Positions 2,522 to 46,053 of a stretch of DNA of 64,000 bases are shown one piece after another. Position numbers and translations under genes: made by a program. Source of the DNA: Candidatus Heimdallarchaeota archaeon (GTDB taxonomy: Archaea > Asgardarchaeota > Heimdallarchaeia > Hodarchaeales > Hodarchaeaceae); NCBI GenBank assembly GCA_011364965.1, contig RDOB01000004.1, forward strand, positions 64,001-128,000, in the 5' to 3' direction. Position 1 is the stretch's first letter, and each line of letters begins with the position of its first letter. Below the pieces are notes generated by a model, which was given only the letters and a program-made list of their open reading frames with translations, ran no database searches and had not been told where the DNA came from.

Positions 2522-3151
2522 TTGAACCAAAATATTCGAGTTTTTAAAAAGAGACTTCAGATTGCAGAAAAGAAATGGAATGCAGTTCAAGCTCAATCAA
2601 TCAAAGCCATAAATACAATACTTGGGACTTTATCTAGATTAAATCTAATCCAACAAAGAGGTGCTTTTTCGGAGGATCTACTCGCAAAATTTCCTGATGT
2701 TCCTGAAAGAATATCCTTTCACCTGGCAGAATTGATAAATAAGAGCATTCATGATTTGAATATATACTTAAGTCAATTAAACGAAATTGTTAATGAAATG
2801 CGCAAAATAGAAGAGCAATTTCGGCAAGACTATTTATTAATAATCAAAACACAATATTCGGAGGGTAATCAATCCTGGTCACATGATCTGGAAACTCTTG
2901 AACAAGCAGAGAGGACTTTTCAAGAAATTGTTGATATGTATGATCGCGAATTATCACTCAGGAAAGAAATACTTAGCACAACTCAAAATAGCTCCTTATT
3001 TCAACCGAATTCACTAATAATCTATCTAACATTGTGGGCAGGAGAGATATATATTGAACATAACCGAATTCATGAATTAATTGAAGAATTCATGCAAGCA
3101 GAAAAGGTTTGTGAGAGAGTTCTCCAGTCTCAAGATTCGATGAGTCCTTAA
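2522..3151 (+). CDS. Helical protein resembling eukaryotic C1orf109/AIRIM
   Basis: 209 aa, helical; LAKFPDVPERI and EIVDMYDRELSLRKEIL plus two Trp match the C1orf109 pattern as I recall it. Confidence 0.55.
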   Translation: MNQNIRVFKKRLQIAEKKWNAVQAQSIKAINTILGTLSRLNLIQQRGAFSEDLLAKFPDVPERISFHLAELINKSIHDLNIYLSQLNEIVNEMRKIEEQFRQDYLLIIKTQYSEGNQSWSHDLETLEQAERTFQEIVDMYDRELSLRKEILSTTQNSSLFQPNSLIIYLTLWAGEIYIEHNRIHELIEEFMQAEKVCERVLQSQDSMSP

Positions 3152-3177: not shown

Positions 3178-4590
3178 TTAGCTTGCATGAAAGTCGGTAG
3201 TATTTAATATAGAGTCTATTGTACCATTTTGTTGAGCTTGAACGAGTAAAGCTTGAATTTTATCATTGATTGAATATTCTGGTTCTCCCTTTTCTAATAA
3301 TCCCTTGACAAGCTTCATTGAAAGGGCTAAATCTGTTTTTGCAAGATTTTCATTTCCAGCTTTACATATTGCTACTCCTCTTACAGAGGTATTTGCAGGA
3401 CCCATGACGGATGTGAAAACACATCTTTTGTCGCCAGCTGTTAGATGGTCAGGAGTGTGTCCGATCAAATCAGAACTCATTGACTGAATTGCGGAAAATA
3501 GTCCAGTATATAGACAAACTTCTTGTCCCGCAGGTCTATGACTTGCAAATAGAGGTAAACCTCCATCATCAAAGATATAAACCTCTGATTCCGAAAAAAT
3601 TTTACCAAGAATACGAAAACGTTCATCTTCTTCAGTAGCATCGAAAAGATCTCTTTTTCTCTCATTTATTGGGGAAATATAGTCGTCTCCATAGTTTGCT
3701 GACTGATTTAAGAAATTTAATGATGCAGATTTTGGGAAAACGTCATCTATAGAGTTAAGGTCTGTTATTATCAACAAAGAGGTGAAACTAGAAATTTGGG
3801 GGTTAACAATATTATTTAGGTATATTTCAAACTCATCTCCAAACGACTTGGCAACTTTTTTGGATATCAAATTTAAATCATGTAGATTAAGAGGAGAAGA
3901 AGAGCTGATAGAAATAAAAATTGCTTCAAGAGATTCAAGTTCCTCTGGCATAGAAGTAACCAATTTTTCTCCAATTTGATTAATTGAAGCCTCTAATGCA
4001 CTCTCAGCGTCTTTAGCGGCAGAAATTCCATAATATAAGCTTTTGGATGCTCCAAACAAACACATCAAATCAGGAAATGAAACACCGGGATTTAAAGAAG
4101 GAGTCAAGCTGGATAACACACAATCTATGAATATTAGATAATTCCATTTACCATTTTCATCAGAAAAGTCAAAATTAAAGTAATTGGGACCAAAAAGCTT
4201 TCGTTTCTGAGGGTTTGGATTTTTGGATACATCAATAAACAGAGGAATCGAACCAGAAAACTTTATAGAGCCAGAAATTCCCCCAAGAGCTCTTAATGTT
4301 CCTTCGTCGGAAGAATTAAAAATAAAGATTAGAAAATAGGAATTTAAAAGACTTTGGATCTGAGATAATGTTGTAACTGAATCAAAAGTCACGACTTGAT
4401 CACATATTGTATCTCCAATTGCTGTTGGAGTTAATAACAAGAGAGGAAGCCGAGATTCATCTCGGGCCGATAGATAATCATGTACGATTTTCATCTCGTT
4501 TGATAGATTATCACCAATAAATACAATTTTACCACGTGGCCTGATGTATTCAAGAAAAGGATTATTTTCAGCGATTAAACTTGTATTCAT
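3178..4590 (-). CDS. Degenerate FtsZ/tubulin-fold protein fused to a C-terminal longin/roadblock-like domain
   Basis: aa ~165-278 follow the FtsZ T7 loop and C-terminal domain pattern; aa ~330-450 contain YIFDDGGLPLF...LYTGLFSAIQSMSSDL, a longin-like pattern. Confidence 0.65.
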   Translation of the reverse strand: MNTSLIAENNPFLEYIRPRGKIVFIGDNLSNEMKIVHDYLSARDESRLPLLLLTPTAIGDTICDQVVTFDSVTTLSQIQSLLNSYFLIFIFNSSDEGTLRALGGISGSIKFSGSIPLFIDVSKNPNPQKRKLFGPNYFNFDFSDENGKWNYLIFIDCVLSSLTPSLNPGVSFPDLMCLFGASKSLYYGISAAKDAESALEASINQIGEKLVTSMPEELESLEAIFISISSSSPLNLHDLNLISKKVAKSFGDEFEIYLNNIVNPQISSFTSLLIITDLNSIDDVFPKSASLNFLNQSANYGDDYISPINERKRDLFDATEEDERFRILGKIFSESEVYIFDDGGLPLFASHRPAGQEVCLYTGLFSAIQSMSSDLIGHTPDHLTAGDKRCVFTSVMGPANTSVRGVAICKAGNENLAKTDLALSMKLVKGLLEKGEPEYSINDKIQALLVQAQQNGTIDSILNTTDFHAS

Positions 4591-4974
4591 CTCTCATTAA
4601 TCCAGCTATATCACTTATAAATCCAGATAAATGGATGGTTGTGTAAACCAAGTATACATAAATAGAATTCCCTTAATGACTCTTCAATTCCCGTATTATT
4701 GTCATGATACTCGTGAAATACTTTCAGAAATCTACGGGGGGTAATAGCTAGAATAATTCCTGAAACCTAGAAGAAACTAAAAATTAACATATTGCTGTAG
4801 TAATAAACAACATGATCATTTTAAGCTAATTCTTTTTTTGAAATTTAATTAGAGATACGAAAATTAATAGAAGTATTTTGAATGCACCTAAATAAAAAGC
4901 GAACCTCATTGAATCTCATGGTTAATCTGAATCAATTGATCATTGAGTAATATTCGCGCTTAGAGAGTTATTTT

Positions 4975-6813
4975 ATGGATTTTGAAGTCATTAAGACGGA
5001 AGGTTGGGGAAAATTAGGTAAATTGAATAATGATGTCGAGATACTTACTCCCAATATTATTGATACATCTTTGTTTAAAGGAAGTAAAAATAAAGGATTA
5101 TCTTTTGAATGTATAAGCTATCCTTCTTTACAAAATCAGGGTAAGGATATTAATTCTATAAAATCCTTTTATGATTTATTTCCTAAAGATTTCAATGAGA
5201 ACCATAAATTCAATTTTGATTTTCACATTATACCTTGGGATTTACCAACTATTTATCTTGGAAATATTAAATCCTATTTAGAGAAAATTAGAGCATTAGA
5301 AATTAAAGAGAATGCAGAAGAACCAAATAAATTTTTCGTTGTGAACATTCCATACAGAAAATCAAAAGAGAATATCTTTGAATTATTAAAGCAATCAAAA
5401 CTTATCAAAGGAGTAATTCTCGGAGATATTTCATCCTTCTTGACAAATCCCATCAATTTACTACATTATATCAAATGGGTTAACCCTTGGGCTCAGAATG
5501 ATAAAATATTTCTAGCTTCGGGTGTACCAAAAAGCTTTATCCCTTTATTATCCTATTTGGGAATAGATATCTTTGATACAATGTATCTAGAAATGCAATC
5601 AATCACAAATTTTCCTAATTTAGAGTTATTACTTGAATTAAAACAATCCAAAGAATCTATTCTTGAAACAATACATCATACTCAAGAAGCATTAAGATTG
5701 GGCAAATTACGGGATTTAGTAAGGATTTATGCTAATTCCTTTCCTCCATTAAAAACAATTCTAAGATTGATTGACAAAGAATTAAACCTAGAGTTAGGGA
5801 ATGCCTTATATACATCTAGTACGCTTTATTGTACAGATGAAACAGATTTTACAAGGCCTGAAGTGACACGATTTCGAAAGAGAATAAAAGAACGATATTT
5901 CCCTCCGGATTATTTAGCTGGAATAATTTTCCTTCCTTGTTCTGCTAAAAAACCCTACTCTCAATCAAGATCTCATCAGATGTTCCAAGCCAGTATTCGA
6001 AAACGGATAAAAAGAAAACGCCATCTTATTCATGAAGTTATAATTACGAGCCCTCTTGGCATTGTTCCTCGTGAATTGGAGTATACATTTCCCGCGGCCC
6101 ACTACGATATTCCTGTAACAGGTGATTGGAGTGAGATTGAAAGAAATTTGTTAAAAGAGGATATAACAAACTTTTTGGGAAAAATCAACCCAAATCTGCC
6201 AATAGTAGGATATGTTGAGGGACCTGAGAAGGAAGTATTGGATTCTATCTCTAAAAAGGTAAATAGACCAATGTATCTTGTTTCAGAAGATTACAAATCA
6301 TTAACTTCGAAAGGTGCTTTATCGGAGTTTTCTACCTTATTAGCTGATGCATTCGAAAATATATCCCTAATAAAAGTCGAAGATCAGACAATACGCTTCC
6401 TTAAGGCGATTGCAGACTTCCAATTTGGTAAAGGAGTAGGAAAACAGCTTTTCTCAGGAAATATCAACATATTTGGAAGAAAGGAATTAGGGTTACGGGT
6501 TAAGAGAAACGAAGAGCATCTGGTTACATTCAACCCAGTTAACGGATTTCTAACACTTTCATTACAAGCAGCGAACTTAATATTAGACAAAACTCCCAAT
6601 ATAGTGGTTTTTGATGGAGAAAAAATAATTGGATCAACAATATTCTCAAAAGGAATTATAGAAGCTAATTCAGAGATACGATCTGGAGATGAAGTCATTG
6701 TATTAAATTCTAATAGACAGATTATTGGTGTGGGGACATCTTACCTTGCTGGAGACTTATTAGTGAGAATGAAGAAAGGAAAGGGAATTTCCATAAGAAA
6801 AAAGGTGAAATGA
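4975..6813 (+). CDS. arcS: Archaeosine synthase alpha subunit (TgtA2/ArcS)
   Basis: TGT-like N-terminus, FLPCSAKKPYSQSRSH, TSPLGIVPRELE, C-terminal PUA domain; abuts the RaSEA gene. Confidence 0.92.
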   Translation: MDFEVIKTEGWGKLGKLNNDVEILTPNIIDTSLFKGSKNKGLSFECISYPSLQNQGKDINSIKSFYDLFPKDFNENHKFNFDFHIIPWDLPTIYLGNIKSYLEKIRALEIKENAEEPNKFFVVNIPYRKSKENIFELLKQSKLIKGVILGDISSFLTNPINLLHYIKWVNPWAQNDKIFLASGVPKSFIPLLSYLGIDIFDTMYLEMQSITNFPNLELLLELKQSKESILETIHHTQEALRLGKLRDLVRIYANSFPPLKTILRLIDKELNLELGNALYTSSTLYCTDETDFTRPEVTRFRKRIKERYFPPDYLAGIIFLPCSAKKPYSQSRSHQMFQASIRKRIKRKRHLIHEVIITSPLGIVPRELEYTFPAAHYDIPVTGDWSEIERNLLKEDITNFLGKINPNLPIVGYVEGPEKEVLDSISKKVNRPMYLVSEDYKSLTSKGALSEFSTLLADAFENISLIKVEDQTIRFLKAIADFQFGKGVGKQLFSGNINIFGRKELGLRVKRNEEHLVTFNPVNGFLTLSLQAANLILDKTPNIVVFDGEKIIGSTIFSKGIIEANSEIRSGDEVIVLNSNRQIIGVGTSYLAGDLLVRMKKGKGISIRKKVK

Positions 6814-7902
6814 TTGGTTAATCTTTTGGTTGCTTCAGAAATAGCTAGAATACGTAGAGAGTATCTTGAACTTTTGGATCCTGATTCAACAGGAAAAATT
6901 TGGCATCGAATTGACGAAATGGAAGACAATATTGTAATTACGATGGTGATCCCATCTAGGGGATGTAGCTGGGCTTTGTCGGAAGCAGGAGGGTGTTCTG
7001 TGTGTGGGTATGTAAATGATTCATCTAGAGACAAAGAAATTCCTAAACAGAAAATATTGAGAGTATTGAATGAAGTTTTACATCAAATTCCGCAAAAAAA
7101 ATATGTAGAACTTAAAATTTTTAACTCAGGAAGTTTTTTTGACAATAAAGATTTACCAAAAGAATTTAGAGAGGAATTATTGAAAGTTATAACCGTTTCG
7201 GAAAAAATTTCTAAATTAACCGTTGAATGCAGACCTGAATTTGTTATACAAAACCTAAATGATATAAAAGCTGCTTGTAAATTAATAAAACAAATCAAAA
7301 TGGAAATTGGACTTGGATTAGAGAGCTCAAATAATTCGATTTTGGTGAATTGTTGGAATAAAGGAACAACTCTTGAAGAGTACACTGAAAGCGTTAAAAT
7401 CCTTCAATCTCTGAACATTAGGATAAAAACATATGTTTTTGTTAAACCTCCCTTTTTAAGCGAAGCAGAAGCAATAGAGGATACATTAACTACGATTCAG
7501 CAGGCAATTGCCTCAGGAACTGATGTGGTTTCGGTAAATCCTTGTGTAGTGCAAAATGGAACTCTAGTGAGTTTTCTCTATAAAAATGATAAATATCAGC
7601 CTCCATGGTTATGGAGTGTTCTAGAAGTTATCAAAAAAACTCGTGAGAATTTTCCGGAATTGGAATTGATTTGCGATCCTACAGCTGGAGGTAAACCTCG
7701 AGGAGCTCACAACTGTGGAAAATGCGATAAAGAAGTACTCAATAGAATAAAAAAAATAGTTCAAGGAGAAAAAATGACGGAATTTGACATAAATATCTGT
7801 TCTTGTTATAAAACATGGAAATTCTTAGTCGAATCACCAGTAGAGATGATTAGGATTAGAAATCTTTCAAAATTGCGTAAACTCAATCCATTAATGGAGT
7901 GA
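6814..7902 (+). CDS. raSEA: Archaeosine biosynthesis radical SAM protein RaSEA
   Basis: RGCSW-x6-GCSVCGY cluster motif, KIFNSGSFF, ECRPEF, YQPPWLWS, RGAHNCGKC. Confidence 0.9.
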   Translation: MVNLLVASEIARIRREYLELLDPDSTGKIWHRIDEMEDNIVITMVIPSRGCSWALSEAGGCSVCGYVNDSSRDKEIPKQKILRVLNEVLHQIPQKKYVELKIFNSGSFFDNKDLPKEFREELLKVITVSEKISKLTVECRPEFVIQNLNDIKAACKLIKQIKMEIGLGLESSNNSILVNCWNKGTTLEEYTESVKILQSLNIRIKTYVFVKPPFLSEAEAIEDTLTTIQQAIASGTDVVSVNPCVVQNGTLVSFLYKNDKYQPPWLWSVLEVIKKTRENFPELELICDPTAGGKPRGAHNCGKCDKEVLNRIKKIVQGEKMTEFDINICSCYKTWKFLVESPVEMIRIRNLSKLRKLNPLME

Positions 7903-16302: not shown

Positions 16303-16776
16303 TTAGAAATTTTCGAGCTCTTTTAACGCGGCCATGATCGATTGGGATTCTGGCTTTTTTATTTTTACTGCAGAGGGCTCTGATAGCTTATCCATTAGTG
16401 TAGATAGGGTGCCAGAGGTTTCTTTCATTCTAACTCTGATTAAACCAAGTTGGGCGTCACCTTCTGCAACCACAACTAGTACTCCTCTCTCTCCGCTTTG
16501 AGCTGTTAAAATTTTCCCATCTGTAAACTCAGCAAGCATCAATCCGAGTTCCCCTAATGTTAGCGCACTTCCTTGTTCTGCTGCTCCACAGAAAACGGCG
16601 GATGCTATGGCTCCTATGCTTTCAAGATCAAACGCACCCATAGTTTCAGAAACTAATAACCTAGAAGCTCGGGCGATAGTTAAACCGGTTCGATCTCCTA
16701 ATAAAGTAACTTTGATCGAGGTATCACTCTTCAAAAGTTTTGTCAGTTCTTTGTGAATTGCGTCTCTTTGTTGCAT
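16303..16776 (-). CDS. Roadblock/LC7 (MglB-like) protein
   Basis: DRTGLTIA, IGAIASAVF, AQLGLIRVRM; ATG at 16776 chosen over TTG at 16791. Confidence 0.88.
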   Translation of the reverse strand: MQQRDAIHKELTKLLKSDTSIKVTLLGDRTGLTIARASRLLVSETMGAFDLESIGAIASAVFCGAAEQGSALTLGELGLMLAEFTDGKILTAQSGERGVLVVVAEGDAQLGLIRVRMKETSGTLSTLMDKLSEPSAVKIKKPESQSIMAALKELENF

Positions 16777-17035
16777 CGAATAAACACCCAAATCCGCATT
16801 ACTTAGTATTCGCTCTGCTACTTAAATGATTTTACCTTGTAATAGTTTAAGTAGTTTTTCAAATAGGGTCTCAACCTTATCCTCATTTTGAATTTTTTGT
16901 TTAGAAATTATTCCTCCAAAATTCTACTGTTAATCTATAAGGAATGATGATATAGATGCCAAGGAAGTACTTTAAACTTTCCCTTTTCAGACGGATTAAT
17001 TCTATAAATCGTTTTCCATTATTAATCTTTAATAA

Positions 17036-45348: not shown

Positions 45349-46053
45349 TTATGACTTTTGGAGCTGAGAAATGATAATATCTCGGATTACCATCTGGATA
45401 GGTTGAATAATCCGCTGAACTGCCTGTGGACGCTGTTTTGGATTCCATTCACCACGAGTCCACGCATCTTTCAAAGCACTGAGGGCTTCTAGGCAACTCA
45501 CCTCAAATGTACTGGCAAACGTGTCTCGTAACTTGTCAGAAATGCCTGCTTCAATCATAAGACGTCCAACATCAGCAGCAGAGATCCGGGTTTCAGCAGG
45601 TAAATCCATTTTATTTAACATAATTGCCATTTTTACCTCTCTACTATACAATTTATCACCTAATATAGTAAATAATTCTATTAAACTCTCTCTATTCTCC
45701 TCCCAGCGAGCTTTCTCGGAATCAATGACAACAATTAAGCCATGCAGTCCATTAATGACAATTTTTCGCATTGATTTAAACCGATCTTGTCCTGGGGTGG
45801 TGAAAAGATGGTACTTAAATGCCTTTCCAGCACCAGTGCCAAGACCAAAGGTAGCTTGGTCAAATCCGATTGTACGTTCTGTTGCTTTGTCTTCAAGTTT
45901 TAAAAAATTGTAAACACTCTCAGGGTCTTCTTTCTTCTTAATTGCGTGAAATAAGCTTAGGGCAGTGGTCTTCCCAGCCAAAGTTGGGCCCCAAAAAACA
46001 ATTTTTACCCCTTGTTGAGACTCTTCAAAAACCAGCTCTTCTTCTTGGCTCAA
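45349..46053 (-). CDS. Small GTPase, MglA/Arf-like
   Basis: G1 GPTLAGKT, G2 ERTIGFD, G3 TTPGQ, G4 NKMD, G5 SCL. Confidence 0.9.
   Translation of the reverse strand: MSQEEELVFEESQQGVKIVFWGPTLAGKTTALSLFHAIKKKEDPESVYNFLKLEDKATERTIGFDQATFGLGTGAGKAFKYHLFTTPGQDRFKSMRKIVINGLHGLIVVIDSEKARWEENRESLIELFTILGDKLYSREVKMAIMLNKMDLPAETRISAADVGRLMIEAGISDKLRDTFASTFEVSCLEALSALKDAWTRGEWNPKQRPQAVQRIIQPIQMVIRDIIISQLQKS

Follow-up and report, generated by a model that had tools for sequence, protein, structure and literature searches.

A predicted pseudo-GTPase of the FtsZ/tubulin superfamily fused to a longin-like domain in Hodarchaeales

FtsZ/tubulin proteins and the longin/roadblock regulators of GTPases belong to toolkits whose elaboration marks eukaryogenesis, and the Hodarchaeales are the archaea placed closest to eukaryotes. 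What kind of protein, then, is encoded by a gene of this order in which elements of both toolkits appear to be joined in one polypeptide? The gene lies at 3178..4590 on the minus strand of the window, i.e., the whole stretch of 64,000 nucleotides that was analysed (contig RDOB01000004.1 of the Candidatus Heimdallarchaeota assembly GCA_011364965.1; G+C ~35%), and it consists of one intact open reading frame (ORF) with an ATG start that specifies 470 amino acids plus the stop. A first-pass annotation, made from the letters of the DNA, had taken the product for a degenerate FtsZ/tubulin-fold protein carrying a longin-like domain. All the peptides that it quoted are recovered by translation of the ORF: KIVFIGD (residues 21-27), QIQSLLNSYFLIFIF (77-91), PGVSFPDLMCLF (168-179), YYGIS (186-190), AIFISISSSSPLNLHDLNLISKKV (223-246), IYLNNIVNPQISSFTSLLIITDL (255-277), EVYIFDDGGLPLF (336-348) and LYTGLFSAIQSMSSDL (360-375). 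As developed below, the fusion adds a domain architecture and a pseudo-enzyme branch, both new, to a well-known superfamily.

The FtsZ part and its nucleotide-binding loops

The AlphaFold2 (AF2) model of the fusion protein reaches a predicted local distance difference test score (pLDDT) of 74.7 overall and of 75-96 over residues 20-280. VIA-align superimposes this model on FtsZ with a Z-score of 20.8 and a root-mean-square deviation of 3.1 Å over 249-252 residues, the alignment running from model residue 17 to 278 and from FtsZ residue 8 to 312, and hence comprising both domains and helix H7, while Foldseek matches it to FtsZ structures with an E-value of ~1e-11 (1.5e-11). The secondary-structure elements follow one another as in FtsZ (S1-H1-S2-S3-H3-S4-H4-S5-H5-S6-H7-T7-H8-S7-H9-S8-H10-S9-S10). 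On the strength of the model, residues 17-278 form a complete two-domain FtsZ fold, which bears out the first-pass annotation on one of the two points by which it had declared itself open to refutation.

Three parts can be distinguished along this fold. Residues 17-144 (4159..4542, minus strand, as are all parts of the gene given below) form a shrunken N-terminal domain of the GTPase-type, Rossmann-like kind, ~45 residues shorter than that of canonical FtsZ and devoid of nucleotide-binding loops in the model and in a MAFFT alignment, with a pLDDT mostly of 75-90. They are followed by the core helix H7, a T7-like loop (G-V-S171-F-P-D174-L) and helix H8 (residues 145-182; 4045..4158), assigned by hhalign and translation, and by the FtsZ C-terminal domain (residues 183-280; 3751..4044), with a pLDDT of 86-96. 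For this last domain, Pfam FtsZ_C (PF12327) gives a match below threshold (residues 188-275, E 0.081, 13.7 bits against a cut-off of 27). A profile built from the family alignment of 39 members, which also underlies the AF2 model and the column counts given below, was compared with all PDB sequences, and 27/27 matches were FtsZ chains (best E 0.0026), covering residues ~160-315, over which the T7 loop and the C-terminal domain align colinearly. Together with the VIA Z-score, this places the resemblance to FtsZ well above chance. Despite the failed Pfam cut-off, the C-terminal domain is regarded as homologous to that of FtsZ, because the PDB matches are exclusively FtsZ and because the profile comparison with canonical FtsZ-longin proteins described in the next section reaches an hhalign E-value of 1.7e-18. 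In the N-terminal domain, the MAFFT alignment is colinear with canonical FtsZ; the local hhalign match to FtsZ begins only at residue 163, and the global alignment misaligns residues 1-160 with zero confidence.

The nucleotide-binding machinery was compared loop by loop in a multiple alignment with canonical FtsZ, combined with the family column counts. The canonical T1 loop GVGGGGNN corresponds to (C/F)-I-G-D-x-L in the family, with a single glycine; in the window protein the site is G-D-N-L-S-N-E (residues 26-32; 4495..4515), where one glycine is left of GGGGNN. The NTD of T2 is replaced, and both the GAGxxP of T3 and the PFxxEG of T5 fall in alignment gaps. At T4, the canonical GLGGGTGTG aligns with F-N-S-S-(E/D)-x-G, in the window protein with N-S-S (residues 92-94; 4309..4317) within the translated stretch FLIFIFNSS, and this triplet is near-invariant (N92 in 36/39, S93 in 39/39 and S94 in 38/39 members). 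The canonical N-L-D-x-x-D of T7 is represented by G-V-S171-F-x-D174: hhalign pairs GVSFPDL with NLDYSDV, the position of the first aspartate is taken by S171 and is serine in the family too, and position 174 holds D in 23/39 and N in 13/39 members. As judged from this alignment, the nucleotide-contact loops T1-T6 are all replaced or deleted and the catalytic aspartate pair of T7 is not conserved, in keeping with the earlier reading that the GGG and GGGTGTG loops are absent and that one T7 aspartate is lost. PF00091 (Tubulin) has no match in the fusion protein, nor does any Pfam NTPase family. Since the protein retains the fold but fails every sequence criterion by which a tubulin-superfamily GTPase would count as functional, it would be a pseudo-GTPase of the FtsZ/tubulin superfamily, which should not run the canonical GTP cycle; from the lost motifs, its N-terminal part appears to be a degenerate FtsZ fold that is almost certainly non-catalytic.

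The longin-like domain and the origin of the fusion

Downstream of the FtsZ part, an acidic linker that is probably disordered (residues 281-320; 3631..3750; pLDDT <50 at 287-318) leads into the longin-like domain (residues 321-470; 3181..3630), which ends in a conserved ..AS. Modelled alone, this domain has a pLDDT of 77 and consists of a leading helix followed by a beta-beta-alpha-beta-beta-beta-alpha-alpha succession, in which DSSP assigns E24-29, E35-38, H46-61, E71-74, E77-85, E91-99, H103-122 and H127-144, so that the five-stranded longin order is present. A VIA search of 48,161 PDB chains retrieves the longin domain of Fuzzy (CPLANE; Z 8.0), AP2 sigma (7.8) and the VAMP7 longin domain (7.7), followed by Mon1/Ccz1, sedlin, SRX, LAMTOR, MglB and Asgard roadblock/longin structures, and the top 50 neighbours are nearly all longin or roadblock proteins. 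Foldseek likewise places Mon1-Ccz1, TRAPP, MglB and Sec22 on top (E ~1e-3). Topology and structural neighbours favour a longin-like reading of the C-terminal part, with Z-scores at or near the background of VIA (Z <8). Pfam finds no longin or roadblock match in residues 315-470 at E-values up to 10, and a divergent member of the family, P0067, matches Fuz_longin_1 with E 0.0019 (18.9 bits against a cut-off of 26.1). Since the Z-scores are modest, the domain is called longin-like, in the sense of the longin/roadblock superfamily, and is not attributed to a specific family. It is the best-conserved part of the fusion protein, with a mean pairwise identity of 0.71, compared with 0.54 in the N-terminal domain, 0.49 in T7 plus the C-terminal domain and 0.20 in the linker.

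The longin subunits found in GTPase regulators and coats of eukaryotes (Fuzzy/CPLANE, Mon1-Ccz1, TRAPP sedlin/Bet5, AP sigma and VAMP7/Sec22) share this topology and are its best structural neighbours (Z 7.2-8.0 over 105-128 residues), but sequence identity to them is only 4-19%. Unlike them, the domain described here has an extra N-terminal helix of roadblock-like flavour and is attached to an FtsZ fold, which the eukaryotic subunits lack. A parallel in architecture is offered by the Asgard small-GTPase/longin/roadblock fusions of Tran et al. 2024 (PMC10933270), where a GTPase module likewise has a longin or roadblock domain covalently attached to it, and whose structures 8yl2 and 8yqg are both among the structural neighbours of the domain. 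In those fusions, however, the GTPase is active and belongs to the Ras superfamily (Rag/Arf-like), whereas in the window protein the module is of the tubulin superfamily and its nucleotide site is lost; the same paper makes no mention of FtsZ (PMC10933270).

The PDB-wide search for the FtsZ part returned FtsZ in all its top matches. FtsZl-1/FtsZl-2, CetZ and the eukaryotic Misato are FtsZ/tubulin paralogues recruited to roles other than the division ring; FtsZl-1 and FtsZl-2 were reportedly described by Makarova and Koonin in 2010 (a work cited in PMC10936438) as divergent members of the tubulin superfamily. We know of no longin domain in any of them.

The gene is far from being a singularity of one assembly, the outcome that the first-pass annotation had named as fatal to the fusion. 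It is single-copy and free of stops in 22/22 species-representative genomes of the window's genus, and its DNA is present in sequencing runs of six studies (marine, estuarine, mangrove and soil samples), so that an artefact of assembly can be dismissed. Two genomes of the sister family carry a protein that matches only the C-terminal domain, and nothing comparable was found in the remaining 59 genomes of the class. Diverged relatives occur in further Hodarchaeales metagenome-assembled genomes (MAGs), and the family is restricted to genomes of Hodarchaeales type. A word-indexed search yielded full-length homologues in 67 clusters at 90% identity (~460-477 amino acids), all from Hodarchaeales or Heimdall MAGs and all unannotated or 'hypothetical', and the neighbouring genes of the window likewise indicate a Heimdallarchaeia/Hodarchaeales genome; across the family as a whole, members are labelled 'hypothetical protein' or plain 'FtsZ'. 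HMMER over 1.84 billion representatives gave only two full-length clusters at 50%, some fragments and a few proteins that have only the C-terminal domain in common. When 400 Asgard genomes were scanned with only the C-terminal domain as query, the distribution was the same, with just distant longin-like relatives elsewhere. No Pfam family spans the protein; the ESM Atlas gave no match by features, and by shape it gave FtsZ-like clusters over residues 15-278, none of which includes the longin part. As the first-pass annotation had anticipated, the literature yielded no paper in which an FtsZ-longin fusion or a comparable pseudo-FtsZ is described, and neither a covalent FtsZ/tubulin-longin union nor a nucleotide-dead FtsZ under strong selection was found described there.

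Among the matches of the HMMER pass was P0072, a protein of 572 amino acids whose last 150 residues resemble the longin domain of the fusion. This protein and P0079-P0083, whose complete sequences measure 571-577 amino acids, are genuine FtsZ proteins that carry a longin-like domain at the C-terminus: they match Pfam Tubulin (3.9e-40) and FtsZ_C (1.5e-19), both above cut-offs, and retain GGGGNN, GGGTGTG and NLDxSD intact. They come from MAGs labelled Hodarchaeales (assemblies GCA_048887005.1 and GCA_016839955.1 carry the canonical fusion), are named only 'cell division protein FtsZ' at NCBI, and were not found in the 400 Asgard GTDB species genomes or the contig scan, all of them being from MAGs outside that set. 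The window protein shares with these canonical forms the two-domain fold and the order T7 loop, C-terminal domain, linker and longin-like domain, although it keeps neither GGGGNN, GGGTGTG and N-L-D-x-x-D nor matches above the Pfam cut-offs. With hhalign, the two families align with a probability of 99.1 (E 1.7e-18), colinearly over 280 columns that begin at the T7 loop, take in the C-terminal domain and the linker and extend to the last residues of the longin domain. Both also terminate in ..AS, where the ordinary FtsZ of the same order terminates in a basic-hydrophobic tail peptide. In the FtsZ-core tree, under midpoint rooting, the FtsZ of the canonical fusions and the ordinary FtsZ found in the window's order group together (support 96/92), and this grouping suggests a duplication within or near the Hodarchaeales. 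A tree of T7 plus the C-terminal domain, affected by long branches, does not recover a clade that unites the window's family and the canonical fusions, but such a clade is not rejected either (p-AU 0.4). Because the trees do not place the pseudo-family, common descent rests on the shared colinear C-terminal architecture, which makes it most likely that the window protein is an FtsZ-longin paralogue that has degenerated.

A further clade, termed clade B, comprises P0084 (509 amino acids), P0085 (515 amino acids) and the partial P0078. Its T1 and T4 loops have degenerated (T4 reads, for instance, Y-N-S-T-D-S-S), FtsZ_C is matched with E 0.006-0.11, and T7 reads I-N-I-D-F-N-D in P0084 and I-N-L-S-F-G-D in P0085. 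One clade-B gene, on a metagenome contig (L049 4103-5552), is frameshifted near 4850-4900; since the intact P0084 exists, the frameshift is attributed to an assembly error or to a strain-level pseudogene. Three states are thus available, namely an active FtsZ-longin, an intermediate clade with an FtsZ-like T7 in which T1 and T4 are lost, and the fully degenerate form of the window, and they offer a natural series for the passage from a cytomotive GTPase to a pseudo-enzyme scaffold.

Predicted function and its alternatives

It is proposed, with a probability of roughly 0.55, that the dead-GTPase FtsZ fold, the disordered acidic linker and the longin domain together constitute a nucleotide-independent scaffold or adaptor. 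According to this proposal, the pseudo-form would no longer run a GTP-driven polymerisation cycle, and its FtsZ-shaped body would offer a second protein-binding surface. The working end would be the longin domain, the most constrained part, which occupies the place of the usual C-terminal anchor peptide of FtsZ and which might form dimers or bind another protein, be it a small GTPase or the C1orf109/CINP-like product of the neighbouring gene. Several observations weigh against this picture as a whole. The pseudo-FtsZ domain is unplaceable in the tree, where its branch measures ~5.6 substitutions per site, and it is the fold and not the sequence that identifies the N-terminal domain. Longin Z-scores of 7-8 lie in a range also reached by unrelated models (VIA background: Z <8). 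Finally, polar residues at strand ends (N92-S93-S94, D64-Q65 and D120) are near-invariant, and for that reason the pocket may still be in use.

This last point is the mainstay of an improbable alternative in which the protein would still be ligand-binding or catalytic, as a divergent NTPase or other small-molecule binder with a re-invented pocket: N92-S93-S94 follows strand 4, D120 follows strand 5, and both, like D64-Q65, occupy Rossmann-type ligand sites. However, no glycine-rich loop is left, T3 and T5 are deleted, and neither PF00091 nor any NTPase family is matched; to our knowledge, the nucleotide-binding members of the superfamily keep the T4 signature. Another account would dismiss the protein as a decaying relic of an FtsZ paralogue without a function of its own, and could invoke the loss of all catalytic motifs, the very long branch of the FtsZ domain and the frameshifted copy in the related clade. 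That copy has an intact version in P0084, however, and synteny is conserved, the gene is intact, single-copy and stop-free in 22/22 genomes, and species with a linker identity as low as 20% still have longin domains that are 71% identical. The intact copies and the pattern of identity reveal purifying selection on the fusion gene, and they make pure decay very unlikely.

An involvement with filaments, as the first-pass annotation had imagined, seems unlikely too, though it deserves more consideration than decay or a new pocket. Here the pseudo-FtsZ would dock on the end of a protofilament of the host FtsZ or tubulin-like protein via one retained longitudinal face, capping or poisoning it, and the longin domain would act as a tether. 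The full fold is indeed kept, including the bottom face, to which H7, the T7/H8 region and the C-terminal domain contribute; a canonical FtsZ and a tubulin-like protein, one of each, are available in the host; and the canonical FtsZ-longin relatives indicate that the longin domain was once joined to a working filament former. Nevertheless, conservation is lost at the T7 residues that contact the nucleotide of the neighbouring subunit (S171; D/N174), the loops of the top face are missing, evolution has been faster in the FtsZ part than in the longin part, and the gene is unlinked to ftsZ or sepF. The scaffold or adaptor without nucleotide dependence is, on balance, the preferred account of the protein.

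A broader proposal, put forward as a rather doubtful one, is that the Hodarchaeales possess a tubulin-superfamily-longin module that would have passed from an active FtsZ encoded beside an Arf-like GTPase gene to a nucleotide-dead scaffold with a C1orf109/CINP-like partner. If true, it would provide a prokaryotic precedent for the coupling of cytoskeletal polymers, or of their pseudo-enzyme descendants, to small-GTPase or AAA+-adaptor machinery. The candidate partners that can be named are the host FtsZ, the Arf-like GTPase and the C1orf109/CINP-like protein, the last having recently been put forward as a link between Asgard archaea and eukaryotes (PMC12962969).

Genomic context and related genes of the host

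In the pseudo-forms, the fusion gene has an archaeosine-synthase-like gene as its divergent neighbour and a C1orf109-like gene as its convergent one. The latter (2522..3151, plus strand) encodes a helical C1orf109/CINP-like protein of 209 amino acids that matches Pfam CA109-like above the cut-off (E 9.8e-10); weak HEPN-type matches (E 0.015-0.054) are seen in it as well. Among the pseudo-form loci that are complete on the downstream side, 18/19 have this convergent neighbour: 12/12 congeneric loci, two of three further assemblies, the locus of the 35%-identical P0067 and all three clade-B loci (L048, L049 and L050). L051, L053 and L054 are among the loci counted here, and in the third further assembly a 170-amino-acid ORF without Pfam matches occupies the place. 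The neighbours are 25% identical between clades, and in most loci the stop codons of the two genes lie 0-30 nt apart. By gene association, the C1orf109/CINP-like protein is a candidate partner of the fusion protein, and from its sequence it may be related, as an archaeal member, to the 55LCC adaptor family. In the 55LCC complex, C1orf109 is partnered by CINP (PMC11055677), and Asgard homologues of CINP have been reported in a paper that mentions neither FtsZ nor longin (PMC12962969).

On the other side lies, divergently and in a conserved position, the archaeosine-synthase-like gene (4975-6813, plus strand; DUF5591 + TGT_C2 + PUA), directly followed by a radical-SAM gene (6814-7902, plus strand), and the two look like an ArcS/RaSEA-type tRNA-modification pair. 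Beyond the C1orf109-like gene, a gene on the minus strand (159-2330) encodes a multi-pass membrane protein of 723 amino acids with a C-terminal helical domain that contains R-N-R-I-V-H and has no Pfam HEPN match at E-values up to 1. A homologue of it is a flanking gene in the genus, in the sister-family genome G070 (29% identity over 716 amino acids) and probably at L051-L054. In G070, the C1orf109-like neighbour is absent while the flanking ArcS and membrane-protein genes are retained, and the syntenic protein matches the fusion protein in the longin part only (hhalign E 1e-8). A 246-amino-acid protein with a double zinc ribbon and a RING finger is encoded there between the ArcS and longin-bearing genes (L017 1559-2299).

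The canonical fusions have a different context, with the order TFIIB, GTPase, FtsZ-longin and EamA in place of ArcS, fusion and C1orf109-like gene. In 3/3 contigs, the canonical gene directly follows, on the same strand, an Arf/Ras-type small GTPase gene whose product has 184-190 amino acids (L021 6620-9522; L022 7029-9640; L027 1969-4517); the three contigs are related and therefore count as one observation, not three. This adjacency gives the sole, indirect hint at the connection with small GTPases that the first-pass annotation had suggested. The best match of this fusion-adjacent GTPase in the host, one of ~34 small GTPases there, is 67% identical and is encoded elsewhere in the genome (L023 1495-2058), next to a roadblock-like ORF. 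A complex prediction of the longin domain with the own-genome orthologue of the GTPase, run without controls, gave ipSAE values of 0.02 and 0.01, which speak neither for nor against binding. The partners named by the first-pass annotation, a roadblock gene (Robl_LC7; 16303-16791, minus strand; Pfam E 1.4e-7) and a Ras/Arf-like GTPase gene (45349-46053, minus strand; E ~5e-8), are both real, but 12-41 kb separate them from the fusion gene, to which nothing connects them.

A single FtsZ is the rule among genomes of the class. The host genome, which is 87% complete, encodes one canonical FtsZ of 423 amino acids (L002 1351-2622), ending in a hydrophobic tail peptide that the fusion protein lacks, and one tubulin-like protein of 454 amino acids. 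On contig 12 of the assembly G000, two tandem Roadblock/LC7 genes (E 7.7e-17 and 1.5e-13) stand with a small GTPase gene (L047, 37000-43400); a 563-amino-acid protein of that locus has a weak N-terminal MinD/CbiA match (E 5.4e-6), and its later part shows no relation to the longin domain of the fusion (hhalign probability 0.3). The same contig carries the host's second tubulin-superfamily gene (L003 649-2013), for a 454-amino-acid protein with GGGTGCG and a PF00091 score of 68 bits, which lies ~50 kb before the window, and a similar ~50-kb spacing to the fusion gene is seen in at least eight genomes of the genus.

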